Assembly: GCA_902826465.1 (NCBI GenBank)
Contig: CADEEX010000003.1
Location: 1-38,668, forward strand
DNA: 38,668 nt
Source of the DNA: an uncultured Acidobacteriota bacterium
Lineage (GTDB): Bacteria; Acidobacteriota; Vicinamibacteria; Vicinamibacterales; CAVVIG01
Reading direction: 5' to 3'
This document shows positions 992 through 24,567 of the stretch, one piece after another. The position numbers and the translations under genes are program-made. Positions within the stretch are counted from its first letter, which is position 1. Each line of letters opens with the position of its first letter. The notes beneath the pieces are model-generated. The model saw only the letters and a list, made by a program, of their open reading frames with translations, made no database searches and was not told the DNA's origin.

Positions 992-1021
992 GAGTGCAGC
1001 GTAGCGCGACGCGCATCGTTG

Positions 1022-1040: not shown

Positions 1041-1080
1041 GGTCCACGGGTCCACGGGTCCACGGGTCCGCAGGTCCGCA
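1041..1080. repeat. Second array of the same octamer: GGTCCACG x3, GGTCCGCA x2; same orientation as array 1..80
   Basis: Direct reading. A lone related copy (GGTCCACT) is also seen at 1853-1860, just after the M50 gene stop. Confidence 0.95.
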
Positions 1081-1143
1081 GGTGTGGGGCGCGATTCCAA
1101 GCGGCGAGTCTGCGACCGGTATAGTTGGCCTGAGGAGCGCCGG

Positions 1144-1848: not shown

Positions 1849-1934
1849 CACAGGTCCACTGTCGCGCACCCAAGCCCCCCCGCACCGAAGCCCCTCTAGC
1901 CCTGTGCGCCCGAGCACCTTTCGCACCATTAAAG

Positions 1935-1943
1935 TGGTAAAAC
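1935..1943 (+). promoter_or_regulatory. Extended -10-like element TGgTAAAAC, 9 nt upstream of the pckG ATG
   Basis: AT-rich element in a GC-rich intergenic region. There is no Shine-Dalgarno between it and ATG 1953 (spacer ACGAAGCTT). Confidence 0.3.
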
Positions 1944-1952
1944 ACGAAGCTT

Positions 1953-3788: not shown

Positions 3789-3798
3789 GGGTAACGGC

Positions 3799-5364
3799 AT
3801 GACTCGCGTACGACAGGACGTGTGGGGGCTGGGCGCCGGGTGGAACGACACGCTGCTGTGGTACGCCAGAGCCATACGAACACTGCAGTCACGACCGCTC
3901 ACCAGTTCCACCAGCTGGAAGTTCCTGGCGGCGATGCACGGCATCCATCCGGTCGTCTGGCGCGAGTTCGGCGTCACCACCGAGAACGAGTCGATGCCGT
4001 CGGCCGCCATCCAGCGCCGTTTCTGGAGCCAATGCCAGCATCAGAGCTGGTACTTCCTCCCCTGGCATCGTGGCTATCTGGCGGCATTCGAGGAGATCGT
4101 CCGCGATGCCATTGTCTCGGCCGGCGGCCCCGACGACTGGGCGCTGCCGTACTGGAACTACAGCGATGCGACGCAACCCACGGCGCGCACGCTACCTGAC
4201 GCCTTCGCGGCCCGCACCCTTCCCGACGGCACAGCCAATCCGCTGCGCGTCGATCGCCGGTTCGGCAGCGGGACGAGTCCGCTGCAGATCGATCCGCGGC
4301 TCGTGGCGCTCGATGCGCTGCAGGACACGGAGTTCGAAGGCGGCGAAGACGACATTCCACCAGGATTCGGCGGTCCGGTGACGCTGTTCCATCACGGGCC
4401 CGAATCGCAAACCACGAACGGCAGCCTCGAGTCGCTTCCGCACAACGTGCTGCACGGTGCGATTGGCGGCAGCGCCCCCGGCCGGAATCCCAACGATTGG
4501 CGCAACCTGGGATTGATGTCGATGCCGATGACGGCCGCGCTCGATCCGATCTTCTGGCTGCATCACGCCAACATCGATCGACTCTGGAGCGTCTGGCTGC
4601 GCGATACGAGGCACAAGAACCCCGATCAGGTCAGCTGGCTCGACGGCCCGACCGACCGCAGCTTCGTGATGCCGAGGAGCGACCAGAGCGAGTGGACCTT
4701 CACGGCGCGCGACGTGCTCGACACGACCGCGCCGCCGCTCGAATATCGCTATGAAGACGAGACGCCACCGGTCGTCGATCGACGTGTGGTGCGCCGTATG
4801 AGCCGGCTGGGCGCACGATCGGCTGGCGACCGCATGCGGGAAAGCGAGGACGCGACCGTGAGTCCACATCAGCCTCCCGAGCTCATCGGTGCCAGTGACG
4901 GCAGCGTGCGCGTATCGGGCGACACCAGCGCCGCGGTCCGCCTCGACGCCCCGGCCACCCAGCAACTGCGCCGCACCCTGACGCGCGCGGCCGCCGCCGA
5001 CGCGGGAACTGTCGCGGAACCGGCACGCGTCTTCCTGAAGCTGGAAGGGATGCGCGGTACCGCGGATGCCGCGATTTATCACGTCTACATCAACCTGCCA
5101 CCCGACGCCGATCCAGTGGACCACGGCGATCAACGCGCCGGCGTTGTGTCGTTGTTCGGCATCTCGGCGGCCAGCGATCCCGACGGGCCGAACGCGGGCA
5201 GCGGCATCAATCAGGTGTTCGAGATCACCGACATCGTGGATGGCCTTCACTTGTCGGGTGCCGACCTTGCGGGGCTCGACGTCCGGTTCGTTCCGGCCAA
5301 TAGCTCCGTGGCGGCGGCGAACTTCTCGATTGCGCGCCTGAGCGTCTTCAAGCTCGAACGGTAA
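3799..5364 (+). CDS. Tyrosinase / polyphenol-oxidase family type-3 copper protein with a long C-terminal domain
   Basis: CuA-like CQHQSWYFLPWHRGYL and CuB-like LPHNVLHGAIGG ... DPIFWLHHANIDRLW. No obvious signal peptide. Starts 10 nt after the pckG stop. Confidence 0.9.
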   Translation: MTRVRQDVWGLGAGWNDTLLWYARAIRTLQSRPLTSSTSWKFLAAMHGIHPVVWREFGVTTENESMPSAAIQRRFWSQCQHQSWYFLPWHRGYLAAFEEIVRDAIVSAGGPDDWALPYWNYSDATQPTARTLPDAFAARTLPDGTANPLRVDRRFGSGTSPLQIDPRLVALDALQDTEFEGGEDDIPPGFGGPVTLFHHGPESQTTNGSLESLPHNVLHGAIGGSAPGRNPNDWRNLGLMSMPMTAALDPIFWLHHANIDRLWSVWLRDTRHKNPDQVSWLDGPTDRSFVMPRSDQSEWTFTARDVLDTTAPPLEYRYEDETPPVVDRRVVRRMSRLGARSAGDRMRESEDATVSPHQPPELIGASDGSVRVSGDTSAAVRLDAPATQQLRRTLTRAAAADAGTVAEPARVFLKLEGMRGTADAAIYHVYINLPPDADPVDHGDQRAGVVSLFGISAASDPDGPNAGSGINQVFEITDIVDGLHLSGADLAGLDVRFVPANSSVAAANFSIARLSVFKLER

Positions 5365-5369
5365 CGCAC

Positions 5370-6059
5370 ATGTGGCTGCGCGCCTTGCTGACGGTGGCGC
5401 TGCGCGCGCCGGGGCCGGCGTTGTTGATCACCAGTGCCGTCGGCTGGACTACGCTCGCCTGGTTGCTCGCGGATGATGGACATGATCATTCGCGGAGCCG
5501 CTTCGCGACGATCTGGGTAGTGATGATCGTGGCGATGGCGCCGCCGCTGCTGGTCCGCGAGGTGGGACGGCTATGGCGCGCCAGCCTTCGTCGTCTGCGG
5601 CACGTCACGGTCGTCTCGTTTATCTGCGGCTACGTGGGAGTGTGGCTGCTCGCGGGCGTGCCGCTGGCGCTGCTCTCGGGGTGGTTCTCTGCGAGTGCAG
5701 AGCGGGTGGCTCTGGCGGCCGTGCTTGTGGCGCTGTGGCACTGCACACCGGCGCGACAGCGCTGGTTGAATGCCTGCCATCGAGCGCCGACGTTGCGCGT
5801 ATTCGGCATGCCGGCTCTCGGAGACTCGCTGCGATATGGTGTCGCCACCGGCAGCGCCTGCGTGGCGACGTGCGGGCCGGCGATGCTGCTGGTGCTGCTC
5901 GTCGGACGCCACCATCTTGGCGCTATGACCATCGCGATGCTGTGGGTGACCGTGGAGCGATATGCGCCGCCCAGGCGTCCACGCTGGCGGATGCCCTTCC
6001 TGGCAGACCGGTCGTTTGACTGGCCCGACCTCGCGGTTGCGACGCGGGCGCCGCTATAG
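5370..6059 (+). CDS. DUF2182-like predicted metal-binding integral membrane protein
   Basis: Multi-TM protein with WVVMIVAMAPP and CVATCGPAMLLVLLVG / VTVERY segments that resemble the DUF2182 signature. Starts 5 nt after the tyrosinase stop. Confidence 0.6.
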   Translation: MWLRALLTVALRAPGPALLITSAVGWTTLAWLLADDGHDHSRSRFATIWVVMIVAMAPPLLVREVGRLWRASLRRLRHVTVVSFICGYVGVWLLAGVPLALLSGWFSASAERVALAAVLVALWHCTPARQRWLNACHRAPTLRVFGMPALGDSLRYGVATGSACVATCGPAMLLVLLVGRHHLGAMTIAMLWVTVERYAPPRRPRWRMPFLADRSFDWPDLAVATRAPL

Positions 6060-9058: not shown

Positions 9059-9159
9059 GCCGGCGCAGCAGATTGGACAGAGGTGCGCGCTGCGAACGAC
9101 AGCGGTGACGCGTCGGCTGTCGATTGACAACGGGCGTGGCGCCGCCGCCAGAGGACACC

Positions 9160-11190
9160 ATGATTCGACGGACATTGCGGGTGGCGTGCGTTGGCGTCGT
9201 GCTCATCGCGGGAGCAGGTGTGGCGCCGGGCACAGCGGCGCCAGCAGATTTCAGCGTTAGGCCCGGCGAACTGATCGTCGATCATCCGACGCTGATCAAC
9301 CTCGGCTTTGAGTGGCTGATTGACGGCGATGCCAACCGTAACGCCTCGGTGGCCGTGACGTTCCGCAAGGTCGGCGATTCCGCCTGGACGACCGCACTGC
9401 CGCTGATGCGCGTGCAGGGTGAGCGCATCGCGCAGCCGAACGTCTGGAACTTGGTGCCCCCGAACATGTTTGCGGGCAGCGTGCTCGACCTCGAACCCGG
9501 TACCGCGTACGAGGCGCGCTTCGTGCTCACCGATCCCGACGGCGTGACCGGACCGGCCGCGGACGCCACGAAGGTGGTCACGGTCAGGACCCGTCCCGAA
9601 CCGATGCCGGCCGCTGGCGGAAAGGTCTACCACGTCTATCCCCTGAGCTGGACCGGCCCGAAGGAGCAGCCCAATTTCGAAGGGATCATGTGCGCCTACA
9701 ACTACCACTGTGGTGCGGGTGACGCCTCGCCTGCCGGGCGTCCGCGTGTACGGCCCGGTGACACCGTGCTGGTGCACGCCGGTGTCTATGCCTGGCACTA
9801 CGAGTTCTATGGCAACGATCGTCGCGTCAACACGACGACGACTTATGAGGGCACCCATTACCTGACCGCCGACGGCACCGCTGAAAAGCCTATCGTCATC
9901 AGGGGCGCAGGCGACGGTGAAGTGGTGCTCGATGGTCGTGGCAACTTCAATCTGTTCAACACCAAAGCCGCCGACTACAACTATTTCGAAGACATCACCT
10001 TCCGCAACACCGGCATCGCGATCTGGGCCGGCACACAGTTCATTGCCGGGTCGAAAGGGCTGACGGTGAAACACTGTCGCTTCGAGCAGGTGGGGCTGGG
10101 TGTCTTCACCAATTACTCCGGCTCGAGCGACTTCTACATTGCCGACAGCACGTTTCTCGGCAAGAACGACTCGCAGAAGCTGATCGGCTGGAACGGCGAC
10201 TTCTGGCGGCAGTTTGCCGGCATCGAAGGGCAGACCTTTCCGCCAGTGATGGCGTCGTACACGGCCATTCGCCTCTACGGTCCTGGTCATGTCGTCGCGT
10301 TCAATTACATCGCTGACTTCCACGACGGCATCGACATCGAAACGTACGGCAATCCCGACGGGTCGAGTGCCGTTGAAGGTCCGGACTACCCGCCGCGTGA
10401 GTACTGGGATCTGCGGCCGGTTGCGATCGATTTCTACAACAACTACTTGACCAACTTTCACGACAACGCCTTCGAGATCGACGGCGGATTGCACAACATC
10501 CGGGTGATGCGGAATGTGATGATGAACTCGGCGTCGCACCCGATGTGCAATCAGCCCGTGGGTGGCGGGCCGGCCTACTGGATCCGTAACGTCGTCTATC
10601 ATGCGCCGGGCGGCTCGAGCCGACTGACGAGCGGCTCTGCCGGTGTGGTGTTCTACAACAACACGATCGTCACCGAGACCGCTGCTGGATCGGCGGCGAA
10701 TGTGCACTGGCGCAACAACCTGATGCTTGGCGAGAACGCGGCGCCGGCGATCTTCAACGTCACCACCAACACCGCCTACAGTTCATCCGACTACAACGGC
10801 TTTCGTCCCAACCCAGGCGCGGCGTCGTCGTTCGTGTGGAATTCGCCCGCGCCTCCGACGCTGGTGGGTGATGGCACGCGAGAATCGCTGCAGCTACGGC
10901 AGTTTCCGACGCTCGCCGCCTACTCCACCGCCACTGGACAGGATCAGCACAGTGTCAGCGTCGACTACGACATTTTCGTCAACGTGCCCAAGCTCGACGC
11001 GAAGGACCTGCGCACCGTTCAGCGGCTCCACGACTTCAGGACGCTCGATTTCCGTCTGAAGCCGCAAGCGTCGGCGATCGACAAGGGCCTCGCGCTGCCG
11101 GGCATCACCGATGGCTTCACCGGGCGCGCGCCCGATCTCGGCGCATTCGAGCTGGGACAGCCGTTGCCCACCTATGGACCCCGGCGCTAG
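9160..11190 (+). CDS. Secreted FN3-like + right-handed parallel beta-helix repeat protein (paralogue 1); polysaccharide lyase/hydrolase-like, family not identified
   Basis: Signal peptide MIRRTLRVACVGVVLIAGAGVAPGTAAPA after GAGGA. The N-terminal beta-sandwich-like segment is followed by repeated short N/D/G-rich turns (DFHDGIDIE, FHDNAFEIDG, IRVMRNVMMNSASH, VFYNNT). Aligns end to end with 18597..20645 and 22513..24567. Confidence 0.85.
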   Translation: MIRRTLRVACVGVVLIAGAGVAPGTAAPADFSVRPGELIVDHPTLINLGFEWLIDGDANRNASVAVTFRKVGDSAWTTALPLMRVQGERIAQPNVWNLVPPNMFAGSVLDLEPGTAYEARFVLTDPDGVTGPAADATKVVTVRTRPEPMPAAGGKVYHVYPLSWTGPKEQPNFEGIMCAYNYHCGAGDASPAGRPRVRPGDTVLVHAGVYAWHYEFYGNDRRVNTTTTYEGTHYLTADGTAEKPIVIRGAGDGEVVLDGRGNFNLFNTKAADYNYFEDITFRNTGIAIWAGTQFIAGSKGLTVKHCRFEQVGLGVFTNYSGSSDFYIADSTFLGKNDSQKLIGWNGDFWRQFAGIEGQTFPPVMASYTAIRLYGPGHVVAFNYIADFHDGIDIETYGNPDGSSAVEGPDYPPREYWDLRPVAIDFYNNYLTNFHDNAFEIDGGLHNIRVMRNVMMNSASHPMCNQPVGGGPAYWIRNVVYHAPGGSSRLTSGSAGVVFYNNTIVTETAAGSAANVHWRNNLMLGENAAPAIFNVTTNTAYSSSDYNGFRPNPGAASSFVWNSPAPPTLVGDGTRESLQLRQFPTLAAYSTATGQDQHSVSVDYDIFVNVPKLDAKDLRTVQRLHDFRTLDFRLKPQASAIDKGLALPGITDGFTGRAPDLGAFELGQPLPTYGPRR

Positions 11191-11297
11191 CGATCGACTT
11201 GAGCCGCGTGTCGAAGGAATCGACCATGCGTTATGTGAGAGAGCACAGCGTCGATCTGGCGACCGCCGAACGAGCCTAGCGGCTCTGGAGTTCCTGC

Positions 11298-12560
11298 ATG
11301 AAGCTGTCACGTCGCGAGTGGATGACGCGGTTCCTGGCCTCGGCTGCCGGCGCGTCGCTGGCCCCCCTGTTCTCGCCAGAAGGTCTGCTCGCGCAGGCGC
11401 GCGAGAAGGCCAGGCCGCTCAATCTGACGATCACCGGTCTGAAGACATTCCTCGTCGCACCCACCGTCTCCCCGGGTGCTGGCATCTTCGTGAAGGTGTA
11501 CACGAATCAAGGGCTGGTCGGCCTGGGCCTGGCGACGCAGAGCAGCAAGGAGATGTCCACCGCTGCCGCAATCAACGAGTTCACGCCGGTGCTGATTGGT
11601 CGCGATCCGACGCAGATCGAGGCGATCTGGGAAGACCTCTACGAAGGGCCGCGGTGGCGTGGCGGTCCGCTGACCGCGGCGTTGAGCGCGGTCGACATTG
11701 CGCTGTGGGACATCCTGGGGCAGGCGCTCGGTCAGCCGATCTACAAGCTGCTCGGTGGGCCGATCCACGACAGGATTCGCGTCTACGGCGGCACTGGCGG
11801 CGTCACACCTGAATCGTGGGCGAAGACCAAGGCCGACGGGTATACCGCGAGCCGTGTGCAGTGGCCGCGCGGCTCGATCACCGAGATGATTGCGTACACC
11901 AAGGCCATGCGTCTGGCGGCGGGGCCCAAGCATGAGATCGCGATTCACGGTGCTGGACGGCTGCCGACGTCTGATGCGCTGCAGTACCTGCGCGGCGTCG
12001 AGGAGTGCAATCTGCTCTTCGTCGAAGAGCCGATTCAGATGGACGACATCGAAGACTGGGTGCACCTGCGGGCGCATACGACGACGCCGATCGCGACCGG
12101 CGAACGGCTCACCACCAAGTTTGCCTTCAATCCGTATCTGTCCAGGCACCTGATCGATTTCGCGCAGCCTGATCTCTGTGCCTGTGGTGGCATTACCGAA
12201 GCGCGGAAGATTGCGGCCATCGCCGAAGCGAACCGTATCCGCATGGCGCCGCATGGCCCGCACGGGCCGGCGGGCGCGCTCGCCAATTTCCACTTCGACG
12301 CGGCGACGCCGAACTTCTACGTGCAGGAAACGCGTGTCTATACCGGGCAGTTCGACCTGGACCTGCACGAGGGCATGGTGCCCGTCATCAAGAACGGATT
12401 CTGTGAGCTTCCCGATCGGCCGGGGCTTGGTACCGTGCTCAACGAGAAGGTGGCCGCCACTCGGCCGTATCAGCCGATCAACCGTGGACGTGGCATCGGC
12501 CTGAGCACGGGCGTCAGCGCGCACGACGAGGACGCGGCCCGCGCCGCTAACCCGCAGTAG
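11298..12560 (+). CDS. Enolase-superfamily (galactonate/mannonate dehydratase-like, MR/MLE) protein with a Tat-type signal peptide
   Basis: MKLSRREWMTRFLASAAGASLAPL... (SRRxW/F twin-arginine motif). Enolase-superfamily landmarks LLFVEEP, IATGER, DFAQPDLCACGGIT and MAPHGP are present. Confidence 0.85.
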   Translation: MKLSRREWMTRFLASAAGASLAPLFSPEGLLAQAREKARPLNLTITGLKTFLVAPTVSPGAGIFVKVYTNQGLVGLGLATQSSKEMSTAAAINEFTPVLIGRDPTQIEAIWEDLYEGPRWRGGPLTAALSAVDIALWDILGQALGQPIYKLLGGPIHDRIRVYGGTGGVTPESWAKTKADGYTASRVQWPRGSITEMIAYTKAMRLAAGPKHEIAIHGAGRLPTSDALQYLRGVEECNLLFVEEPIQMDDIEDWVHLRAHTTTPIATGERLTTKFAFNPYLSRHLIDFAQPDLCACGGITEARKIAAIAEANRIRMAPHGPHGPAGALANFHFDAATPNFYVQETRVYTGQFDLDLHEGMVPVIKNGFCELPDRPGLGTVLNEKVAATRPYQPINRGRGIGLSTGVSAHDEDAARAANPQ

Positions 12561-12589: not shown

Positions 12590-14857
12590 GTGCGCGCGAC
12601 CGACACCCTGACCTATTCGCCCCCGCGCAATCCGGCCCCGGCCGATCTGGCCGAACTGTCGGCGTTGGCCCGTCACGTCAAGGCGGGACGCTGCGCACTG
12701 TTTGTCGGGGCAGGGCTCTCAGCGCCTGCAGGGCTGCCGACGTGGGGTGCGTTGATGCAGCAACTGATCGATCGCGCCACACCGTGGGCGGTCGATCCCG
12801 CACTCTTTTCGACACCGATCGACTTCGAATCTCCCGTGCGATCGGCACTCAAGGAGCCGCGCGTGGCGGCGGTGCGTCGAGCGCTGGGTGACGCGTCGTT
12901 TCGTCGCTTGTGCGATGGCGTCCGCCGTGTTCGCGGCGGTTCGTTCGATCTGCAGGAGCTGCTGCACGTGCTCGACACCGTGTATCAGGACTCGGCCGAC
13001 CGCGCGGAGCTGGCAAGACTCACGACGCAGCGCCGTTACACCGAGCTGGCCGAACATTGCCGCACGCGGCTCGGCCGTGAGCGTTTTCACGCCATCGTTC
13101 GAGAGGCGCTCACGACGACGGCGGAATTGCCCTCGACGCATGTCGACATCGTCCGCACCCCGTATTCGTGCGTGGTGACGACGAACTTCGACACGCTGCT
13201 GGAGGACGCGTACGCCAGGTACGCCGGCTTCGTACCGAGAACGCCGACCGGCGCCGAGCTGGGGCAGCAGGGAACGCTGTTGCTGGACGAGGCGTTCTTC
13301 ATCCTGAAGGCGCATGGCGACGCCGCCCGGCCAGAGACGATGGTGTTCACAGCCGACGACTACCGCCGGATCATTCACGCCACGCCGGCGTTTCAGGCGG
13401 TGCTCGGCGGCATTCTGCTGACGCACGCGGTGCTCTTTGTCGGCTACTCGCTGAACGACGTCAATTTCCGGCTGCTCCTCGACAATCAGCTCACGGTCTT
13501 CAACGGACATGTGCCGCCGCGCTATGCGTTGCTCAGCGGCGTCGGGCCGGCCGAAGCGGATTTGCTGTGGCAGACCGCCAAGCTGCAGGTGCTGTCGTAC
13601 CCCGACGGGCAGCACGATGCCGTCGGGAGATTTCTGGGCAGGCTTGCAGAAGAATCGGCACCGCGATCGCTGCTGGCAACGAAGCGCGTGCGCACGGATC
13701 GGTCGAGCCGTGTCGCGACACTGCGCATCGACAGCGATGGCAGCCGCGTGATCTACGAACTGACCGATGCGGATGGCGGCAAACCGTGGATCGGATCCGG
13801 ACGTCATCCGGATACGCACGCGATCGGCACCTGGCTACGGAACGCCGATCAGCAAGCGGGACGCGGACACTCGCCGCGGGCGCTGGTCCAGCGTATAGGA
13901 AAGGCGCTGGCGGCGTCACTGCCAGACGACCTGCAGCGCCGCTTGAGCCATCTGCCGGCCGGACAGACGCTGGAACTCGCCTGCTCGACGCAGGCGACGC
14001 GGATTCCGTGGGAATGGCTCGATGCCGGCGGGCAGGAGCTGGCGATGAAGCGTCCGTGCGTGCGACGGCCCGTCGGTGTCAGCCACCAGGCCCGTGGTCG
14101 CCGTCAGCCGGGGGCGCCACTGCGGGCGCTCGTGCTGGGCGATGCCGGCGACGCTGCGGAAGGCCAGGGGATGCCACAGTTGTTCTACGCCGATCTCGAG
14201 GCGAGGGTCATTGCGCGGTTGCTCGAGACGCGGGTGGGGGCCACAGTCACCTGCCTGTCGAGGGAACAGGCGGTGCACGCACGGGTGATGGACGAGATCG
14301 AGCGCGGCCAGTACGACATCATCCATTTCGCGGGCCACGCGTGGTTCGATGATCGCGAAGCCTACTTCTATACCTGGGACCGCATCATTCTCGGCTCGGA
14401 ACTGGCGCCGCTGCTGACGCGCAGTCCACCGGCGCTGCTGGTGCTCGATACGCACTACACCGCGTTTGTGATCAGCGAAGTGGACGCGCGCACGCGCGAT
14501 CTGGTGGGGACACCGACGAGCGAACGCTTGTATCACGCCGAGGGGCCGCGCGGCTTTGCCGATGCTGCGATGCGCTGCGGTGTGTCGTCGTTTGTCGGTG
14601 CGTTCGGCACCGTCACCGATCTGCCCGCCGCCGAATTGATGGTCGATTTCTACGAACGCCTGTTGAAAGGGCGCACCGTCGCCGAGGCGCTGCTCGACGC
14701 GCGCCAGATGAAGAATCCACTGGCCGCGGATTCCGGTCTGTTCTATACCGCGGTGGGTTACCCGGATTTCGGCCTCACGCGCCACCGACACAAGGCCCGC
14801 CACCCGCTCCCGTCGGTCGCGTCGCTCAAGCGCGACGTCGGCTGGCCGGCGGCATGA
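12590..14857 (+). CDS. SIR2-like (SIR2_2 defence-type NADase fold) domain fused to a C-terminal CHAT (caspase-fold) domain
   Basis: N-terminal motifs in order: CALFVGAGLSAPAGLPTW, VVTTNFDTLLE (Asn199), FFILKAHGD (His242), FTADDYRR, LFVGYSLNDVNFRLLL. C-terminal motifs: RIPWEWL, DIIHFAGHA, ALLVLDTHY, GVSSFVGAFGTVTD, FYERLLKGRTVAEALLDAR. The GTG start at 12590 is uncertain (a TTG near 12665 is possible). Starts 29 nt after the enolase-like gene. Confidence 0.8.
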   Translation: MRATDTLTYSPPRNPAPADLAELSALARHVKAGRCALFVGAGLSAPAGLPTWGALMQQLIDRATPWAVDPALFSTPIDFESPVRSALKEPRVAAVRRALGDASFRRLCDGVRRVRGGSFDLQELLHVLDTVYQDSADRAELARLTTQRRYTELAEHCRTRLGRERFHAIVREALTTTAELPSTHVDIVRTPYSCVVTTNFDTLLEDAYARYAGFVPRTPTGAELGQQGTLLLDEAFFILKAHGDAARPETMVFTADDYRRIIHATPAFQAVLGGILLTHAVLFVGYSLNDVNFRLLLDNQLTVFNGHVPPRYALLSGVGPAEADLLWQTAKLQVLSYPDGQHDAVGRFLGRLAEESAPRSLLATKRVRTDRSSRVATLRIDSDGSRVIYELTDADGGKPWIGSGRHPDTHAIGTWLRNADQQAGRGHSPRALVQRIGKALAASLPDDLQRRLSHLPAGQTLELACSTQATRIPWEWLDAGGQELAMKRPCVRRPVGVSHQARGRRQPGAPLRALVLGDAGDAAEGQGMPQLFYADLEARVIARLLETRVGATVTCLSREQAVHARVMDEIERGQYDIIHFAGHAWFDDREAYFYTWDRIILGSELAPLLTRSPPALLVLDTHYTAFVISEVDARTRDLVGTPTSERLYHAEGPRGFADAAMRCGVSSFVGAFGTVTDLPAAELMVDFYERLLKGRTVAEALLDARQMKNPLAADSGLFYTAVGYPDFGLTRHRHKARHPLPSVASLKRDVGWPAA

Positions 14858-15276
14858 ACTGGACCTCCATGGAACCCATTTCGATCAGTTACCTGGCCGT
14901 GCTGGTGGCGGTGATCATCCGCATGATGCTCGGCGCCCTCTGGTACTCGCCGCTGCTCTTCGTTCGTCGATGGCAGGCGCTGACCGGCGTGTCCAATGCG
15001 ACGCTGGGCGCCCGCCTTGGTCGTGGCATCGCGGTCGACGCCATCACGTCGCTGATCATGGCTTTTGCGCTCGCCAACATCATCGGCGCCTCGCGCATCA
15101 ACGACTGGGCCAACGGCGCGGGTGCCGGCTTCTGGGTCTGTCTGGGATTCATCGCGACGACCGCGGCACCGCTCTGGGCGTACGAAGATAGGCCGCCGGC
15201 GCTGCTGGCGATCAACGTTGGCTATAACTTCGTGGCGCTCCCGATGATGGGCGCTTTGCTCGCCGTGTGGCGCTAG
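14854..15276 (+). CDS. DUF1761-like small integral membrane protein (about 4 TM segments)
   Basis: Hydrophobic 140-aa protein with YLAVLVAVIIRMMLGALWYSP near the N-terminus, typical of DUF1761. The ATG overlaps the SIR2-CHAT stop (ATGA). Confidence 0.6.
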   Translation: MNWTSMEPISISYLAVLVAVIIRMMLGALWYSPLLFVRRWQALTGVSNATLGARLGRGIAVDAITSLIMAFALANIIGASRINDWANGAGAGFWVCLGFIATTAAPLWAYEDRPPALLAINVGYNFVALPMMGALLAVWR

Positions 15277-15279
15277 TGG

Positions 15280-15777
15280 TCAGATCCGCAGCACGTCGCT
15301 GCGGCCCGGCATCGTGTCGGCCGCCTTGCAGGGACCGAGCACGATCGCGATCACGATCGCGCGACGCAGTTCCTCCGGTGACCCGATCGCCGAGCGCCGT
15401 CGTCGCAAAGGTCGGGTCGGGCGAGAGGCGCCACTCGCCAGCGGCGGAACACTGGCGCGCGCGCCGATTTCGTCTCCCAGGACTTCCAGCGATTTCCCTT
15501 CGAGGGTGATCGGGAGCTGTGCGCCGAGGCGAGGAGCCGGCACCGGTTCCGGCGGTATCGTCGGCGTGGCTGGCGGAAGTGCCGCCGTCTGTACAGACGG
15601 ATCTCTCCGTCTGGGCGCGGGTGACCGCTGGGTCGCTCCTGGTGCTCTCCCAATCGGCCGTGGCACCGGAGGCCGGCGTTTCTCCGGCGTACCGGCTTCC
15701 CGCGCTCGCCGGACCACGAACTCCAGCAACGGCACCACCACCAGGAACGCGATGAACAGCAGCTGCTCAAGCGACAT
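15280..15777 (-). CDS. Hypothetical N-terminally membrane-anchored Pro/Arg-rich protein; third gene of the nfeD-floA operon
   Basis: TM segment LLFIAFLVVVPLLEFVV followed by a low-complexity P/R-rich region. Lies 35 nt downstream of floA on the same strand. Confidence 0.5.
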   Translation of the reverse strand: MSLEQLLFIAFLVVVPLLEFVVRRAREAGTPEKRRPPVPRPIGRAPGATQRSPAPRRRDPSVQTAALPPATPTIPPEPVPAPRLGAQLPITLEGKSLEVLGDEIGARASVPPLASGASRPTRPLRRRRSAIGSPEELRRAIVIAIVLGPCKAADTMPGRSDVLRI

Positions 15778-15812
15778 CGGTGGCCCCCCGTTCCCTGCCT
15801 TTCATCGTCTGC

Positions 15813-16799
15813 TCAGCGTCCCATCGGTTTCGGGCCCTGGTCTTCGCCCCGGTCGGCAATCGATTCGCGCATCGACGAATCGGCCTGGATGTTCTGCATC
15901 CGGTAGTAGTCCATGACGCCGAGCGTCCCATTGCGGAACGCTTCGGCCATGGCGCGGGGCACTTCCGCTTCGGCCTCGACGACGCGGGCGCGCATCTCCT
16001 GTTCGTGCGCGACCGCCATCGCGCGTCGCTCTTCGGCCTTGGCCTGGGCAATCTGCTTGTCAGCGTTGGCCTGATCGATCTGCAGCTTGGCGCCAATGTT
16101 CTCGCCGACGTCGACGTCGGCAATGTCGATCGACAGAATCTCGTAGGCCGTGCCGGCATCGAGGCCGCGCGCCAGGATGTTCTTCGAGATGTGGTCGGGA
16201 TTCTCGAGCACGTCCTTGTGCGACGCCGCAGAGCCGATGGTGCTGACCATGCCTTCGCCGACGCGCGCAATGATCGTTTCCTCGCCGGCGCCGCCGACGA
16301 GGCGATCGAGGTTGGTACGCACCGTGACGCGCGAGACGGCAATCAGCTGAATACCGTCTTTGGCCACCGCGGCGATGCGCGACGTTTCGATCACCTTCGG
16401 GATCACCGACATCTTGACGGCTTCGAGCACGTCGCGACCAGCGAGGTCGATCGCCGCCGCCCGCTTGAACGGCATCTGGATATTCGCCTTGTCGGCAGAG
16501 ATGAGCGCGTTCACGACCCGCACGACGTTGCCGCCGGCAAGATAGTGGGCTTCAAGATCGTTGATCGAAATCCCCTCCAGTCCAGCCTTGACGGAGCTGA
16601 TGCGGGCGTTGACGATGGTGGCCGGCGGTACGCGGCGCAAGCGCATACCGACAAGGGTCAACAGTCCGACGTAGGCGCCCGACGACCACGCGGCAATCCA
16701 CAGCGGTACCGGTACGAAGTACAGGACGAACATGAGGAGCAGCACGGCCACGACGAGCAGGCCGAGCGCGCCAAACGCCGCCGGATCGAATTCATTCAT
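15813..16799 (-). CDS. floA: Flotillin-like protein FloA (UPF0365/YqfA family)
   Basis: N-terminal hairpin TM followed by [39 protein letters not shown]..., characteristic of FloA. Follows nfeD after a 5-nt gap. Confidence 0.9.
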
Positions 16800-16804
16800 G
16801 ATGG

Positions 16805-18256
16805 TTATCCATTCTTCGTGTGACGAAGGTGCTCGCGAACGACCACCCGGTTACCGTCCACTCGTGTCACTTCTATGGCGGTGCCCGCGTCGATGAAACC
16901 TCCATCGGACACCACATCGACACGCGTGCCGTCCATGTCGGCGATTCCGGCCGGCCGCAGAGGGGAGTGCGCGATGCCGGTGCGGCCGACCCACTGCTGA
17001 TCGCTCGGCGGCGCCGAGGCATAGCCGAGCGTCGCCTTCATATTCGTGTCGAGCACCAGTTGCTGACCAAACGGCAACGACGGCAGGTATCGCAGGATCA
17101 CCACGCCGAGACCGAGCGCGATCAGAATCGAGATCGCCACCTGCCCGAGCGCGCTGATGATGATGGCGCCCGTGGCGCCGGCGCCGACCAGTGTCAGCGC
17201 CAGTCCGGCAATGAGCGCAACAATGCCTGCCAGCCCCGTGACACCGAAGCCGGGAACGACCAGCACCTCGAGGGCAAGAAGCGCCAGTCCTACGGCAATC
17301 AGCATCAGCTCCTCCCAGCCGGCCAGCTGGACGATCCAGTGCCCCCAGAAGAAGAGACCGAGGAATGTCATGCCGAGGACACCCGGCAGGGCGAACCCTG
17401 GCGTTCGGATCTCGACCATCACGGCCAGCAGGCCAATGGTCATGAGGAGCGAACTGACTACTGGATTGGTGAGGAAGCGCACGAGCGTCTCGGCCCAGCT
17501 CTCGGTGCGGCGCTCAATCGTGACCGCGCCCAGTCCCGCCTTGGCGAGTGCGTCCTCGAGCGAGTTCGCACTCAGGTCGGCCACTTTGTGCGCGAGCGCC
17601 TCCGACGAGGTCAGCGTCAGCAGTTTTCCCTTCTCGATCAGGCCGTCGATCGCCACGTCGGCGTCGACCATGGCTTCGGCGATCAGTGTGGGACGGCCGC
17701 GCTGCTCGGCCGTGGCAGCGAACTCCTTGCGCACATACGACAGCGACTTCTCATCTGCCGCTTGCGGCGGTCCGGTGCCGCCAACCACCGGGGTGGCGGC
17801 GCCAATAGTGCCGCCGTCGGCCATGACGATGGTGTGGGTGGCGAGCGCGATCAGCGCGCCTGCGGAAATGGCGCGCGGGTTGATGAAGGCGATGGTGCGA
17901 ACGGGGGAGCGGATAATGGCGTCGCGCATGGCCACCGCGGCGTCGACGCGTCCGCCGAAGGTGTTGATGTCGAGGACCACCGCAGCGGCCTTCGCCTGTT
18001 CCGCTTCGTGGAGAACGCGGTTCAGGTAGGGCGCGAGGCCGAGGTCGATCATGCCGTCGATGGCGACGACGTAAACGAGCGCGGGGGGCTGGCTGGCGTT
18101 CTGGCCGTGCACGGCGGCTGGCGCTGATAGTAGTTGCGCGCACGCGGAGGCCACCAGCACACAGCGGCCGAGGTGTCGCCACCTGTGCCAGGTGAGGTTC
18201 GCTCGGTTGAGTCGGTGCCGAGGGCGCGCGTGCGGTTCACTTCGGGGCCACTGCAT
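16805..18256 (-). CDS. nfeD: NfeD-family membrane-bound ClpP-class serine protease (YqeZ-like)
   Basis: ClpP-like N-terminal domain, a central multi-TM block, and a C-terminal NfeD OB-fold ([31 protein letters not shown]). The exact start is uncertain. Confidence 0.85.
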
Positions 18257-18596: not shown

Positions 18597-20645
18597 TTAC
18601 CGCGGTCGTGGGCCGTAGATCGGTGCTGGCTGGCCCACCTCCAGCGCACCGAGGTCTGGCGCCTGGCCGGTGAATCCATCCGTCACATTCGGCAGCGCTA
18701 CACCACGGTCCACCGCCGCTGAACCCGGCTTGAGCCTGAAGTCGAGATCCTCCGCCTTGTAGAGACGCTGCACGGTGGCCAGATCCTTCGCGTCGAGCTT
18801 CATCACCTTCGTGAACACGTCGTAGTCGACCAGCACGCTGTGCTGGTCCTGCTTCGTCGCCTGAGCGTAGGCCTCGAGCGTGGCGAACTTCCGCTGCTCG
18901 ATCTTCTCGGCGCTGCTGCCGTCAGCGCGAATCGACGCGATGGCGGCCGGCGGCGAATTCCACTGGAACGACTCAGTGCCGGCATTGGGGCGGAAGCCGT
19001 TGTAATCCGACGAACTGTAGTTCGTGTTCGTGTTCACCGTGAACACCGACGCCGAGACGTTCTGCCCGAGCATCAGGTTGTTCCGCCAGTGCGAATTGGC
19101 CGACGAGCCGGCCGACGTTTCGGTGGTGACGGTGTTGTTGTAGAAGAACACGCCGGGCGAGCCAGCGGTGGCGCGCGTCGATCCGCCGGGTGCGTGGTAG
19201 ACGATGTTGCGGATGAAATAGAACGGGCCGCCGACCGACGGCTGCGTGCTCATCGGATGCGAGGCGGAGTTGATCAGCATGTTCCGCATGATGCGGATGT
19301 TGTGCATGCTGCCGTCCATCTCGATCGAGTTGTCGTGCGCGTTGGTGATGTAGTTGTTGTAGATATCGATCGCGGTCGGACGGCGGTCCCAGAACTCCTT
19401 CGGCGGATAGGTCGGACCGTCGATCGGATGTGAACCGTCCGGCATGCCGTACATCTCGGTGTCGATGCCGTCGTGGAAGTCGGCCACATAGTTGAAAGCG
19501 ACGACGTGGCCGGGACCGTAGAGGCGAATGGCGGTGTACGACTTCATCACCGGCGGATACTCCTGCCCCTCAACGTTCTCGAACTGCTGCCAGAACGGAC
19601 CGTTCCAGCCAGTGAGGTGCTTCGAGTCGTTACGACCGAGGAAGATGCTGTCGGCGATGTAGAAGTCGCTCGAGCCAGAGTAGTTCGAGAACACGCCCAT
19701 GCCGACCTGGTCGAAGGTGCAGCGCTTGACGGTGAGCCCCTTCGAGCCGGCGATGAACTGCGTGCCGGCCCAGATCGCAATGTCGGTGTTCTTGAACGTG
19801 ATGCCTTCGAAGTAGTTGTAATCGGCCGCCTTCACGTTGAACAGGTTGAAGTTGCCGCGGCCGTCGATGATCACCTCGCCGTCGCCGGCCGCCTTGATCA
19901 CAATCGGTCGCTCGGCGGTGCCGTCAGCCGTGAGGTAATAGGTGCCTTCGAAGGTGGTGGTGGCGTTGATGGTGGTCTGGTTGGCGTAGAACTCGTAGTG
20001 GTAGGCGTAGGTGCCGGTGTGGACGAGGAGCGTGTCACCCGGCTTGACGCGGGGCCGCCCGCCCGGCGCGGTGTCGCCGGCGCCGCAGTAGTAGTTGTAG
20101 GCGCACATGATCCCCTCGAAGGCCGGCTCGGTCTTCGGGCCAAGCCACTTGGTCGGGTAGACGTGGTACACCTTGCCGCCCGTCGCGGGCACGGGTTCAG
20201 GACGCGTACGCACGGTCACCACCTTCGTGGCGTTTGCGGCGGGACCGGTGATGCCGTCCGGGTCGGTGAGTACGAAGCGCGCTTCGTAGGCGGTACCCGG
20301 TTCGAGGTCGAGGATGCTGCCGGCGAACATGTTCGGCGACACCAGGTTGAAGACGTTGCGTTGGAAGACCTGCTCGCCCTGCGATCGCACCAGTGGTAAC
20401 GCCGTGCGCCACGTGGCGTCGCCAGGCTTCCGATACGACACGTCCACCCGCGCGTTACGATTGGCATCGCCGTCGATGTGCCACTCGAACCCCAGGTTGA
20501 TGAGCGTCGGGTGCTCGATCACGAACTCGCCGGGAGTCACTCCAGCGTCGCCAGGCGCCGCGATGAGTGGCTGGCTCACGCTGGCCAGGCCGGCCACAAG
20601 GATCATCGGAGCACAGGTGTGAAGCAGGTGACGAGATACGCGCAT
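18597..20645 (-). CDS. Secreted FN3-like + parallel beta-helix repeat protein (paralogue 2)
   Basis: Collinear with paralogue 1 over the whole length. Start moved to ATG 20645 (MRVSRHLLHTCAPMILVAGLASVSQPLIAAPG signal-like). Confidence 0.85.
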   Translation of the reverse strand: MRVSRHLLHTCAPMILVAGLASVSQPLIAAPGDAGVTPGEFVIEHPTLINLGFEWHIDGDANRNARVDVSYRKPGDATWRTALPLVRSQGEQVFQRNVFNLVSPNMFAGSILDLEPGTAYEARFVLTDPDGITGPAANATKVVTVRTRPEPVPATGGKVYHVYPTKWLGPKTEPAFEGIMCAYNYYCGAGDTAPGGRPRVKPGDTLLVHTGTYAYHYEFYANQTTINATTTFEGTYYLTADGTAERPIVIKAAGDGEVIIDGRGNFNLFNVKAADYNYFEGITFKNTDIAIWAGTQFIAGSKGLTVKRCTFDQVGMGVFSNYSGSSDFYIADSIFLGRNDSKHLTGWNGPFWQQFENVEGQEYPPVMKSYTAIRLYGPGHVVAFNYVADFHDGIDTEMYGMPDGSHPIDGPTYPPKEFWDRRPTAIDIYNNYITNAHDNSIEMDGSMHNIRIMRNMLINSASHPMSTQPSVGGPFYFIRNIVYHAPGGSTRATAGSPGVFFYNNTVTTETSAGSSANSHWRNNLMLGQNVSASVFTVNTNTNYSSSDYNGFRPNAGTESFQWNSPPAAIASIRADGSSAEKIEQRKFATLEAYAQATKQDQHSVLVDYDVFTKVMKLDAKDLATVQRLYKAEDLDFRLKPGSAAVDRGVALPNVTDGFTGQAPDLGALEVGQPAPIYGPRPR

Positions 20646-20654
20646 GGTGCGCGG

Positions 20655-20660
20655 ATTATA
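20655..20660 (-). promoter_or_regulatory. Perfect TATAAT (minus strand) 9 nt upstream of the paralogue-2 ATG
   Basis: Plus-strand ATTATA at 20655-20660. The spacer CCGCGCACC has no Shine-Dalgarno. Confidence 0.35.
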
Positions 20661-21487
20661 TGACGCACTTCCGTGGATGGGCGAAGCCGGGCCCGGTGCC
20701 GCCTGGCGCAGAGGCGCGGCCCGACGTGCCACCCGACGAATCACTCGACGCCATCAGCGGGCACTTTCGCCTGTTCCAGCTGCGCGACGGGCATCGATTC
20801 TCGACCGACGATGTCCTGACGGCGTGGTACGGCAGTTCGTGGGCGCCGACGGCATCGACCGTGCTCGACCTCGGTTCTGGTATCGGGTCGGTCGGCATGG
20901 TGGCGGCGTGGCGTCTGCCGGGTGCGAGGTTCGTGACGATTGAGGCGCAGGACGAGAGCGTGCGCCTGGCCCGAAAGTCAGCGGTCTACAACGGTCTCGC
21001 CGCGCGCTACGAGATCCGCCACGGCGACTTCCGCGATCCTCAGGCGCTCGGTGCCGACGAGCGTTTCGATCTGGTCCTCGGCAGCCCGCCGTACTTCCCG
21101 CTTGGCACCGGCGTCGAAGGCGACCATCCGCAGAAGGTGCAATGCCGGTTCGAGGTGAGGGGCGATATCAGCGACTACGTCCGTGTAGCGGTCGCGCACC
21201 TCGCACTTGGAGGGCTGTTCGCCTGTGTCTTCCCGGAGAATCAGCTGGCGAGAGCGGAGCAGGCCGCGGCGGATGCCGGAGCCGTGATCGTACGGCGTCG
21301 GCCGGTGGTGTTTCGCGAGGGCGACGCGCCACTCGTCGCCCTCTTCGCGATGATGCGCGCGTCCGACTTACCTGAAAACATGCGACAGCGCACGTGGGTC
21401 GAGCCGCCACTCGTGATCAGGACGGCTGATAGTCAGGTCCATCCGGAGTACGCCGCCGTGAAACTGTCGTTCGGCTTCCCGCCGTAA
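20660..21487 (+). CDS. Class I SAM-dependent methyltransferase, tRNA1(Val) m6A37 (YfiC/TrmN6)-like
   Basis: FRLFQLRDGHRFSTDDVLTAW, SAM motif VLDLGSGIGSVG, catalytic-type GSPPYF. The start is uncertain (ATG 20660, or GTG at 20696 or 20726). The track start 20567 overlaps paralogue 2. Confidence 0.8.
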   Translation: MTHFRGWAKPGPVPPGAEARPDVPPDESLDAISGHFRLFQLRDGHRFSTDDVLTAWYGSSWAPTASTVLDLGSGIGSVGMVAAWRLPGARFVTIEAQDESVRLARKSAVYNGLAARYEIRHGDFRDPQALGADERFDLVLGSPPYFPLGTGVEGDHPQKVQCRFEVRGDISDYVRVAVAHLALGGLFACVFPENQLARAEQAAADAGAVIVRRRPVVFREGDAPLVALFAMMRASDLPENMRQRTWVEPPLVIRTADSQVHPEYAAVKLSFGFPP

Positions 21488-22390: not shown

Positions 22391-22499
22391 GTTGATGCCT
22401 CCTGCTAAGACGGTCGACAAAACCGCGCCATCATACTGCGACAGCCGCGGTGACGCCGAGGTCGGGCGACTTTCTCTCAAAGGGACGCCAAATCGCCGA

Positions 22500-22505
22500 T
22501 AGAAT
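22500..22505 (+). promoter_or_regulatory. -10-like TAGAAT 7 nt upstream of the paralogue-3 ATG
   Basis: GCCGATAGAATCGCGCGCATG with no Shine-Dalgarno. GCCGATAGA is shared with the paralogue-1 candidate -10 (GCCGATAGAGT). Confidence 0.35.
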
Positions 22506-22512
22506 CGCGCGC

Positions 22513-24567
22513 ATGAAATGCACCGTCGCGTGTTGTATCGCCCTTGTCACTGTTCTTGCCGCCGCGGTTCACCTTGGAGCGCCGCTTGGTGCCCAATCAG
22601 CCCAGGTTGGCAACGCGGTCGTGGCAGGGGAGTTGGTCATCGATCCGCCGACACTCATCAATCTCGGCTTCGAATGGCTGATCGAGGGCGACGCCAACCG
22701 GACGGCGTCAGTCGCCGTGCAGTATCGGAAGGCCGGCGAGTCGGCGTGGCGGCAGGCGCTGCCGCTGGTGCGACTGCAGGGCGAGCGCGTTCGGTCGGGG
22801 CGGCAGATCGACGTCACCGTGCCGAACATGTTCGCCGGCAGCATCCTCGACCTCGAGCCGGACACCAGTTACGAGGCGCAGTTCGTGCTGACCGACACTG
22901 ACGGCGTGAGCGGGGACGCGCGCAAGACGGTGACCGTGCGGACGCGTCCGGAGCCGATGCCGTCGCGCGAGGGACGCACGTTTCACGTGTATCCGCACGG
23001 GTTCAAGGGCGAGAAGCAGCAGCCGGCGTTCGAAGGGCTGATGTGCGCCTACAACCTCTCGTGCTCGGGGACCGACTACGCGACCATCGGCCGGCCCCGC
23101 GTGAAGGCGGGAGACACGATCCTGGTGCACGCGGGACTCTACAAGTACAACCGCTACGAATACACGACCAACCCCACGGTGAACAGCACGCAGCCGCTCG
23201 ATGGCACCTATTACTTCACGGCCGATGGCACCGCCGAAAAGCCGATCGCGATCAAGGCCGCTGGCGACGGCGAGGTGGTGTTTGACGGCGCTGGCAACTA
23301 CGCGCTCTTCGATGTGCGCGCGGCCGACTACACCTACGTCGAGGGGATCACCTTCCGCAACACCGAGTACGGCATCCTCGCCGGCACGCAGTTCCTGATC
23401 GGCGCCAAGGGACTGTCGGTGAAGCATTCGCGCTTCGAAAACGTGGGTGCGGGGGTGTGGACCAACTATTCGGGTTCGAGCAACTTCTATATCGCCGACA
23501 ACGTCTTCATTGGCCGCGACGATCCGGACCATGTGATCGGCTGGTCAGGCGCGATCTGGGAACCGTTCAACGGCGTCGACGGTCAGAAGTTTCCGCCGCC
23601 CATGTCTTCGTACGTGGCTGTCAAAATCTACGGTCCGGGCCATGTCGTCGCCTACAACTACGTGGCGAACTTCCACGACGGCATCGACATTGAGACGTAC
23701 GGAAACCCCGACGGCTCGTCGGCTGAGGACGGCCCCCCGTATCCGCCGCGGGAGTCGTGGCACCTGCGCCCGGTCGCCATCGACTTCTACAACAACTTCA
23801 TGACCAACTTTCACGACAACCCGTTCGAGATCGACGGCGGGCTGCACAACATCCGCGTGATGCGGAACATGATGCTGAATTCGGCGTCGCACGCGTTCTG
23901 CAATCAGCCGTCGTTCGGCGGCCCCACCTACTGGATTCGCAACATTGCCTACCACCTGCCAGGTGGGGCGGTGCGGCTCACTGGTGGCTCGGCCGGTGTG
24001 TTCTTCTACAACAACACAATCCTGTCTGAGATTGCGCTGGCGTCAGGGTCGAACGTCCACTTCAGGAACAACCTGGTGCTCGGCGAGCAGTCGTCGCCGG
24101 CGCTGTTTGCCATCAACACGCTCACCAACTACTCGTCGTCTGATTTCAACGGCTTCAGACCGAATCCCGGTGCACCGTTTTCGTTCGCCTGGAACTCACC
24201 GTCAGCGGAGAAGCCGGCTGACTACACCAGCCTGACGACCACGGCGGCGCAGGGCGGTGGTCGATCGCTCGAGACGCGGCAGTTCCCAACGCTGACGGCG
24301 TATGCGCAGGCCACCGGGCAGGATCGGCGCAGCGTGCTGGTGGACTACGACGTGTTCGTGAAGGTGCCGCCGCTCAGCGCCCTGGATCGCGCCACGGTGC
24401 AGAAGGTCTACAAGATGGACGGGCTCGACTTCGGCTTGCGCGCCGGCTCGGCCGCTGTTGATGCCGGCACGTCGCTGCCCAACATCACCGAGGGATTCGC
24501 CGGTCGTGCCCCCGATCTCGGTGCGCTCGAATTGAACAGCCCGCCGCCACATTACGGCCCGCGGTGA
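22513..24567 (+). CDS. Secreted FN3-like + parallel beta-helix repeat protein (paralogue 3)
   Basis: Collinear with paralogues 1 and 2. Start at ATG 22513 (MKCTVACCIALVTVLAAAVHLGAPLGAQS signal peptide). Confidence 0.85.
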   Translation: MKCTVACCIALVTVLAAAVHLGAPLGAQSAQVGNAVVAGELVIDPPTLINLGFEWLIEGDANRTASVAVQYRKAGESAWRQALPLVRLQGERVRSGRQIDVTVPNMFAGSILDLEPDTSYEAQFVLTDTDGVSGDARKTVTVRTRPEPMPSREGRTFHVYPHGFKGEKQQPAFEGLMCAYNLSCSGTDYATIGRPRVKAGDTILVHAGLYKYNRYEYTTNPTVNSTQPLDGTYYFTADGTAEKPIAIKAAGDGEVVFDGAGNYALFDVRAADYTYVEGITFRNTEYGILAGTQFLIGAKGLSVKHSRFENVGAGVWTNYSGSSNFYIADNVFIGRDDPDHVIGWSGAIWEPFNGVDGQKFPPPMSSYVAVKIYGPGHVVAYNYVANFHDGIDIETYGNPDGSSAEDGPPYPPRESWHLRPVAIDFYNNFMTNFHDNPFEIDGGLHNIRVMRNMMLNSASHAFCNQPSFGGPTYWIRNIAYHLPGGAVRLTGGSAGVFFYNNTILSEIALASGSNVHFRNNLVLGEQSSPALFAINTLTNYSSSDFNGFRPNPGAPFSFAWNSPSAEKPADYTSLTTTAAQGGGRSLETRQFPTLTAYAQATGQDRRSVLVDYDVFVKVPPLSALDRATVQKVYKMDGLDFGLRAGSAAVDAGTSLPNITEGFAGRAPDLGALELNSPPPHYGPR

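Follow-up and report, generated by a model that had tools for sequence, protein, structure and literature searches.

The window analysed here is a stretch of 38,668 nucleotides (nt) from an uncultured Acidobacteriota bacterium (contig CADEEX010000003.1), and its forward strand carries a gene whose product, here called SIR2-CHAT, joins a SIR2_2 domain to a CHAT (caspase-hemoglobinase fold) domain. SIR2 enzymes that hydrolyse nicotinamide adenine dinucleotide (NAD+), or NADases, form one of the main classes of effector in bacterial immunity, and the systems that use them differ in how the enzyme is switched on. CHAT domains have so far been known in defence only as active proteases, in type III-E Craspase, SAVED-CHAT and Borvo; here the domain is predicted to be catalytically dead and sits on a SIR2 domain. 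The gene comprises the following features, with residues numbered in amino acids (aa).

12590..14857 (+): whole gene for the SIR2_2 and pseudo-CHAT protein (GTG start, 755 aa; open reading frame (ORF) listing, Pfam, AlphaFold2 model)
12647..13639 (+): SIR2_2 NADase-type domain, aa ~20-350 (PDB sequence matches, Foldseek)
12707..12721 (+): GAGLS loop for NAD binding, aa 40-44 (corresponding GAGLS loops in ThsA, KomC and 7uxt)
13184..13192 (+): Asn199 and Asp201 of the TTNFD motif, with the SIR2 catalytic Asn (aligns with TTNYD of ThsA, KomC and 7uxt)
13313..13315 (+): His242 of the KAHGD motif, the SIR2 catalytic His (equivalent by alignment to the His of KMHGD/KFHGD in ThsA and KomC)
13640..13954 (+): linker module, aa 351-455, three beta-strands then three helices (secondary structure from the AlphaFold2 model)
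13955..14779 (+): CHAT domain without a nucleophile Cys (Pfam, Foldseek)
14336..14338 (+): His583, at the caspase-fold catalytic His position in HFAGHA (aligns with the His of MALT1, 8tl0 and canonical CHAT)
14453..14455 (+): His622, in the column of the canonical CHAT catalytic Cys (alignment to two canonical CHAT neighbours)
14486..14539 (+): variable, low-confidence loop, aa 633-650, after the nucleophile-position strand (predicted local distance difference test (pLDDT) score <50)

Architecture and active sites of SIR2-CHAT

SIR2_2 and CHAT folds are fused in one polypeptide. Both Pfam profiles match far above their cut-offs, SIR2_2 (PF13289) at aa 194-334 (E-value (E) 3.6e-25, 89.2 bits against a cut-off of 24.5) and CHAT (PF12770) at aa 435-706 (E 3.5e-19, 69.8 bits against a cut-off of 24). 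The AlphaFold2 model, for which a 35-sequence alignment served as input, is confident (mean pLDDT 85.9, predicted template modelling score 0.85). Its best Foldseek matches in the PDB are KomC, DSR2 and ThsA for the N-terminal half, and Csx29/TPR-CHAT of the type III-E Craspase (E 3e-12) together with separase for the C-terminal half. An earlier note had assigned both domains from motifs in the sequence, and these results bear the assignment out; the motifs and codons that it quoted (GAGLS; TTNFD, in which nt 13184-13186 encode Asn199; KAHGD, in which nt 13313-13315 encode His242) proved exact. Homologues start aligning at the same N-terminus as the window protein, and the ORF has a third-position GC content (GC3) of 0.79, typical among the window genes. 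In the linker, mean pairwise identity falls to 22% and 0 columns are invariant. No Pfam family match indicates an NTPase domain in the protein, the middle region being a short beta/helical linker in the AlphaFold2 model, and Pfam likewise finds no TPR.

Judged from its sequence, the SIR2 domain has an intact catalytic site, whose residues are under strict conservation. PDB sequence searches with the window protein matched its N-terminal half only, returning SeThsA (7uxt, 1.6e-13), ThsA (6lhx, 1e-11), KomC (8zsf, 1.3e-11) and also DSR2, and the mutant chains KomC H146N and DSR2 H171A each scored lower against the window protein than their own wild-type chains. We counted residue conservation over 147 retrieved proteins containing both halves: Asn199, Asp201 and His242 are N-D-H in 147 of 147, as they are throughout the 35-sequence alignment, and the GAGLS loop is near-invariant among family members. 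The earlier note had judged that the NAD+-cleaving site looks intact, and the residue counts across the family agree. Mean pairwise identity in the SIR2 core (aa 140-350) is 61%, with 46 of 211 columns invariant, while a clade-specific helical insert occupies aa ~65-139. The CxxC Zn-ribbon of deacylase sirtuins is missing from the SIR2_2 domain of the window protein. ThsA, DSR2 and KomC are established NADases and, by analogy with these closest characterised relatives, the SIR2_2 domain is most likely an enzyme that hydrolyses NAD+.

The C-terminal half, read from its aligned residues, is a CHAT-fold pseudo-protease and not an active CHAT cysteine peptidase, because His622 fills the column of the nucleophile and none of the 147 two-domain members has a Cys there. 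Other CHAT motifs are in place (PWEW at aa 473-476, HFAGHA at aa 579-584 and LLVLDTH at aa 616-622). A phmmer search of the CHAT half against the PDB gave 0 matches, and the family profile gave only weak ones, to MALT1 (1.4) and to 8tl0 (0.038), the sole CHAT sequence match in the PDB, which served for the His register only. In that register His583 falls on the His of YAGHG in MALT1, of HFIGH in 8tl0 and of HYAGHA/HYAGHG in two canonical CHAT neighbours. For the Cys register, canonical CHAT proteins encoded by chance near homologues were decisive: LLVLNTH of the family stands in column register with LVFFNAC and LIVANAC of the CHAT neighbours at loci L031 and L021. The earlier note had listed LLVLDxx, which is the canonical CHAT Cys site, without remarking on His622, and had implied that the domain is a second, proteolytic effector, a view that the lack of Cys in all 147 proteins does not support.

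Position 583 is His in ~77% of the family and non-His in ~23%. The D576-H579-H583-H622 signature reads DHHH in 106 of 147 proteins (72%), and in the other proteins both His583 and His622 are mostly gone, with V/D, V/L, I/L and similar replacements. On a neighbour-joining tree, Fitch parsimony places this double loss in at least three independent lineages, and the same tree holds single-loss intermediates (HE, HS, YH, FH and GH). A new metal site formed by Asp576, His579, His583 and His622 was considered and set aside, Asp576 and His579 being ordinary CHAT motif residues that are present also in canonical CHAT proteins. Across the CHAT half mean pairwise identity is 40% and 17 of 275 columns are invariant. 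Since the Asn-Asp-His site is kept and the His/His pair is repeatedly lost, the function of the family would appear to need SIR2 catalysis and the CHAT scaffold, not CHAT catalysis. The architecture has no name, and on present alignments its description as 'NADase plus caspase protease' must be replaced by 'NADase plus pseudo-protease'.

Two further features of the CHAT half stand out. The loop at aa 633-650 varies in length and sequence across the alignment and is probably the topological equivalent of the caspase inter-subunit linker. Before the first caspase-core strand lies a family-specific motif, R-x-P-x-G-x-S-x-x-A-R-G-R ... P-L-R, at aa 492, 502-503 and 512 (nt ~14063-14128), in which Arg492, Arg502 and Gly503 are invariant; it is missing from the canonical CHAT neighbours and could be a ligand- or phosphate-binding feature.

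Family, neighbourhoods and comparison with named systems

SIR2-CHAT is a real, recurrent, widespread and unnamed bacterial family. A word-indexed search brought up 188 proteins; of the 120 matches listed, on which architecture was judged, nearly all show SIR2_2 plus CHAT over 650-800 aa. The same two-domain architecture is common to more than 120 clusters at 90% identity, and the family as a whole comprises more than 140 such clusters. Database names of the members are only 'SIR2 family protein', 'CHAT domain-containing protein' or 'hypothetical'. A profile search, exhaustive over 1.84 billion representatives, yielded 426 clusters (50% identity) at E<=1e-30, ~50-60 of them full length, and a scan of species-representative genomes yielded ~29 full-length loci. 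Full-length members occur in at least eight phyla (Acidobacteriota, Gemmatimonadota, Verrucomicrobiota, Planctomycetota, Bacteroidota, Actinomycetota, Myxococcota and Pseudomonadota). Carriers within the Acidobacteriota belong to Blastocatellia, Pyrinomonadaceae, Bryobacteraceae and Thermoanaerobaculia, and carriers elsewhere include Chitinophagaceae, Thermoleophilia, Sorangium, a deltaproteobacterial metagenome-assembled genome (MAG), Burkholderiaceae and Bradyrhizobium. PLSDB plasmids and GenBank phages gave no full-length SIR2-CHAT, only partial matches to SIR2 alone or CHAT alone. One Gemmatimonadaceae MAG locus (L029) holds two SIR2-CHAT paralogues within ~7 kb, at 2749-4812 (+) and 9872-11950 (+), both of the His/His form.

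We clustered the five ORFs on each side of ~30 homologue loci by all-against-all comparison and found no conserved partner gene, as no neighbour family occurs in more than 3 of the ~30 loci. A Pfam scan of 121 neighbour proteins gave only CHAT and SIR2_2 as families recurring three times. The surrounding genes differ even among relatives at ~60% identity. This agrees with the earlier note, which had seen no NTPase, TIR, Argonaute or helicase partner, and Pfam finds SIR2_2 and CHAT only in the protein itself. Large adjacent ORFs in L010, L020 and L031 were rejected as partners, because they encode unrelated proteins (an alpha-2-macroglobulin, an FG-GAP/PKD protein and an RTX-subtilase protein).

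Some homologues lie among conflict or mobile genes. The Burkholderiales JOSHI_001 locus (L001) encodes an NNH1-NACHT protein, a 2033-aa CHAT protein, an integrase, SRAP, RadC, SSB and DUF932; one other locus has PIN-RHH and AbiEii near SIR2-CHAT, and another a second SIR2-TPR gene. Conflict-type neighbours were seen at roughly 4 of 8 distinct Pfam-annotated homologue loci, which is a raw count without a background rate. Several loci are plainly housekeeping, the window among them, and overall no more than a weak association with defence islands is suggested.

Two side observations concern these neighbourhoods. On a Thermoleophilia-like contig (L007), two stand-alone SIR2_2 genes and an nSTAND1 gene (256-4405) lie within 7 kb upstream of SIR2-CHAT, and the region may be a small SIR2-rich conflict island. 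PADLOC matches are scattered among the 121 neighbour proteins (loci L008-L036, L001 and L003) and comprise mad2, mad6, mad8, HEC-06, Orf5 and kinases; of these, mad2, mad6 and mad8 represent the methylation-associated defence system.

In 3 of the ~30 loci, a gene adjacent to SIR2-CHAT encodes a CHAT protein that contains the Cys. In two distant Pseudomonadota the gene directly upstream, on the same strand, encodes a giant protein with lipase-like (LCAT/PGAP1/DUF7379), Peptidase_M17_N and CHAT domains, and giant and SIR2-CHAT may form a functional pair.

L001 1548-7649 (+): lipase-like + Peptidase_M17_N + CHAT giant, Burkholderiales JOSHI_001
L031 7568-10780 (+): lipase-like + Peptidase_M17_N + CHAT giant, Bradyrhizobium sp. 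21 (catalytic Cys confirmed intact)

Outside the family, SIR2-only matches to the family profile are fused to NACHT plus HEAT, to nSTAND1 (also with HisKA-HATPase-REC) and to NA-iREase1 plus NACHT, and further fusions of the same module carry LRR plus metallophosphatase, a protein kinase, or histidine-kinase/receiver modules. These varied fusions therefore mark the SIR2 subtype as a shuffled head on many sensor and switch modules, as in NLR-like conflict proteins, with some signalling variants. Three proteins (P0243, P0245 and P0247) join the subtype to HisKA-HATPase-receiver modules, one of them with nSTAND1 too. This is an unusual architecture, and such hybrids suggest phosphorelay control of a putative NADase.

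The earlier note had placed the protein outside the named systems, and the searches agree. PADLOC v2 and NCBIfam defence models match the SIR2 core only, apart from a weak BovA match, and full-text literature searches, including NADase, conflict-system and anti-phage contexts, found no description of a SIR2-CHAT fusion. The domain table of a review lists SIR2 in Thoeris, SPARSA, DSR1/2, SIR2-HerA, Avs type V and PD-T7-2, and has no system combining SIR2 with CHAT; Borvo is its only non-CRISPR CHAT defence system, CHAT otherwise appearing in type III-E CRISPR (PMC10952713).

DSR2 offers a close parallel in layout, being a single polypeptide with an N-terminal SIR2_2 domain that has the same Asn/His motifs, a C-terminal non-catalytic sensor region and no partner gene. 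However, the window protein scores 30.6 bits against the NCBIfam Dsr2 equivalog and 20.5 bits against Dsr1, where the cut-offs are 1400, and the DSR2 C-terminus is a helical sensor whereas that of the window protein is a caspase-fold CHAT. For the SIR2 half, ThsA and KomC are the top matches in both sequence and structure (PADLOC ThsA 3e-26), and both are NADases activated by filament assembly, according to the titles of their PDB entries. Membership of Thoeris is contradicted by the lack of SLOG/STALD and of a ThsB/TIR gene, and the PADLOC ThsA match covers model positions 67-224 of 478. Unlike KomC of the Kongming system (HAM-SIR2), SIR2-CHAT has no KomA or KomB partner gene.

On the CHAT side, Csx29/TPR-CHAT and SAVED-CHAT share with the C-terminal half the fold, in which Csx29/TPR-CHAT is its best structural match, and the PWE and HxxGH motifs. 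Csx29 and SAVED-CHAT are active His-Cys proteases under the control of Cas7-11 or cyclic oligoadenylate, whereas the window protein has His in place of Cys and lacks TPR, SAVED and a CRISPR context. Borvo resembles it as a defence protein with a stand-alone CHAT domain (BovA), but the PADLOC match (aa 532-590, E 0.0034) spans 59 residues and is far too weak for membership, and the nucleophile is missing in the window protein; the literature found describes Borvo only as a CHAT protease system and makes no mention of a SIR2 domain. Avs5 and other NACHT/STAND proteins with a SIR2 head share the effector-plus-sensor logic, and the SIR2 modules nearest to the family are found at the head of NACHT and nSTAND1 proteins, but the window protein has no STAND NTPase, Pfam showing SIR2_2 and CHAT only. 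Pseudo-caspases and pseudo-orthocaspases, such as cFLIP and the cyanobacterial orthocaspases with a substituted dyad, are dyad-less caspase folds with a regulatory or scaffolding role. None of them is joined to an NADase, and the Cys-to-His change and the SIR2 fusion are specific to the SIR2-CHAT family. The best-supported reading is that SIR2-CHAT works like DSR2 or the Avs5-type SIR2 effectors yet belongs to none of those families, while its membership of the SIR2_2 superfamily is clear.

Proposed mechanism and alternatives

On balance we lean towards a conflict effector of the DSR2 type that depletes NAD+ as a single polypeptide, with the putative pseudo-CHAT domain as its sensor or regulator. 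The SIR2 domain would be the effector and the pseudo-CHAT domain the sensor, autoinhibitor or assembly module. CHAT would hold SIR2 off until a trigger (a protein, peptide or ligand) binds, or would drive assembly, and SIR2 activation would then deplete NAD+ and arrest growth. NADase activity, trigger sensing by CHAT and an anti-phage or abortive-infection role are what we infer for the protein. This reading is supported by the patchy multi-phylum spread, the absence of an obligate partner, the SIR2 kin that head STAND/NLR-type proteins, and the loci set among conflict or mobile genes (JOSHI_001, L007, PIN-RHH/AbiEii and SIR2-TPR). The higher conservation of the SIR2 core over the CHAT half, in identity (61% versus 40%) and in invariant columns (46 versus 17), is the usual pattern of a conserved effector with a faster-evolving sensor, and the self-contained sensor-effector suggested in the earlier note fits the absence of a conserved neighbour. 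If it is a defence system, SIR2-CHAT would be a compact one-gene system common in under-studied soil phyla (Acidobacteriota, Gemmatimonadota, Verrucomicrobiota and Planctomycetota), and a tractable case of a pseudo-protease as sensor.

A more specific proposal, which we regard as tentative, is that the dead CHAT cleft with His583/His622 binds a substrate-like peptide from the invader, a phage protease inhibitor or a small phosphorylated ligand, and that this switches SIR2 on. Sensing of this kind would constitute a new sensor class for single-protein abortive infection and a bacterial counterpart of the pseudo-caspase regulators.

Several observations weigh against a conflict effector. In the window only housekeeping genes surround the ORF, with no mobile element and uniform GC content; about half of the Pfam-annotated homologue loci have no conflict-type neighbour, and several are plainly housekeeping; full-length copies were not found on PLSDB plasmids or GenBank phages; and among the relatives of the SIR2 module are some with histidine-kinase/receiver fusions, which hints at non-defence signalling. 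In addition, the His/His pair at the old active site is kept in 72% of members, suggesting that the site still acts in some way (ligand or metal binding, catalysis) that lies outside the effector-plus-sensor model.

The housekeeping context in the window and at several homologue loci, the uniform GC, the absence of full-length copies from plasmids and phages and the two-component signalling fusions would suit a physiological, non-defence role in soil bacteria: the protein would be a regulator linked to NAD+ (for example a switch for stress or dormancy, a protein deacylase or an ADP-ribosyltransferase), and its CHAT fold a protein-interaction module. We consider this unlikely. Patchy spread over at least eight phyla, neighbourhoods that shift at ~60% identity and paralogues in one locus (L029) are traits of accessory, horizontally moving conflict genes; moreover, the SIR2_2 class has no deacylase Zn-ribbon and its characterised close relatives are all NADases. 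Were the protein not a defence factor, an annotation of SIR2_2 plus CHAT should still not be read as 'NADase plus protease'.

Less probable again is a proteolytic cascade involving a CHAT protease that is a protein of its own and catalytically active. The pseudo-CHAT domain would form a heterodimer with it, in the way of pseudo-caspases with caspases, or the protease would cut the variable loop, and either event would release or activate the SIR2 NADase. The disordered loop at aa 633-650 would suit such cleavage if it does occupy the position of the caspase inter-subunit linker. CHAT and SIR2_2 are the only Pfam families found in three neighbour sets, and Cys-containing CHAT proteins adjoin SIR2-CHAT in 3 of the ~30 loci, two of them sharing the lipase-like, M17_N and CHAT build. 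In ~27 of the 30 loci, however, the window included, there is no CHAT gene within three genes on either side, although such a protease might have its gene at a distant site in the same genome.

That CHAT is still an enzyme and a second effector, acting through His583/His622 and possibly a metal or activated water, is very improbable: the pair occurs in 106 of 147 members and its residues tend to vanish together, suggesting one functional unit, but roughly a quarter of the family has lost it, in at least three independent events, with the SIR2 site and the remaining protein still conserved, Asp576 and His579 are shared with canonical CHAT and hence provide no new metal site, and to our knowledge no caspase-fold peptidase with a His nucleophile exists.

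Other genes of the window

Two genes adjoin SIR2-CHAT directly.

11298-12560: enolase-superfamily gene, upstream neighbour
14854..15276 (+): DUF1761 membrane-protein gene, downstream neighbour (Pfam DUF1761 5.8e-24; 4-bp ATGA overlap)

The earlier note had described metabolic and envelope surroundings, which the annotation confirms: the remaining genes encode PEPCK, a tyrosinase and a copper chaperone, a dynamin-like GTPase, FloA, NfeD, an ECF sigma factor, zwf/eda/edd and peptidases, and GC content is flat along the window. FloA falls into a cluster at 90% identity together with a protein from a Vicinamibacterales MAG, which makes an acidobacterial source probable. No integrase, transposase or recognised defence gene is present among the window genes, no TIR domain was found among those annotated, and the window holds no CRISPR-associated genes. 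Coupling of the downstream membrane gene to SIR2-CHAT had also been proposed. The ATGA overlap is real, but a DUF1761 gene lies downstream of SIR2-CHAT in no other locus examined, including relatives at 57-63% identity, and we rejected it as a coupled part of the system. With orthologues of the upstream enolase-superfamily gene (82-87% identity) as anchors, SIR2-CHAT is absent after them in three related contigs, where no other window neighbour is retained either.

Downstream, on the minus strand (15280-18256), lie an NfeD-FloA operon and then a proline-rich 165-aa ORF (15280-15777) without a family match, which is convergent with the DUF1761 gene and 3 bp from it. Three paralogous proteins of ~700 aa, with predicted signal peptides and no Pfam match, are encoded at 9124-11190 (+), 18597-20744 (-) and 22450-24567 (+) and are 70% and 61% identical to one another. 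The copies at 9124-11190 and 18597-20744 are inverted relative to each other and flank the block of the enolase-family gene, SIR2-CHAT, DUF1761, FloA and NfeD. The stretch 3799-6059 (+) encodes a fusion of tyrosinase with DUF7868 and, after it, a PpoB2 copper chaperone, and the pair looks like a melanin or phenol-oxidase cassette.

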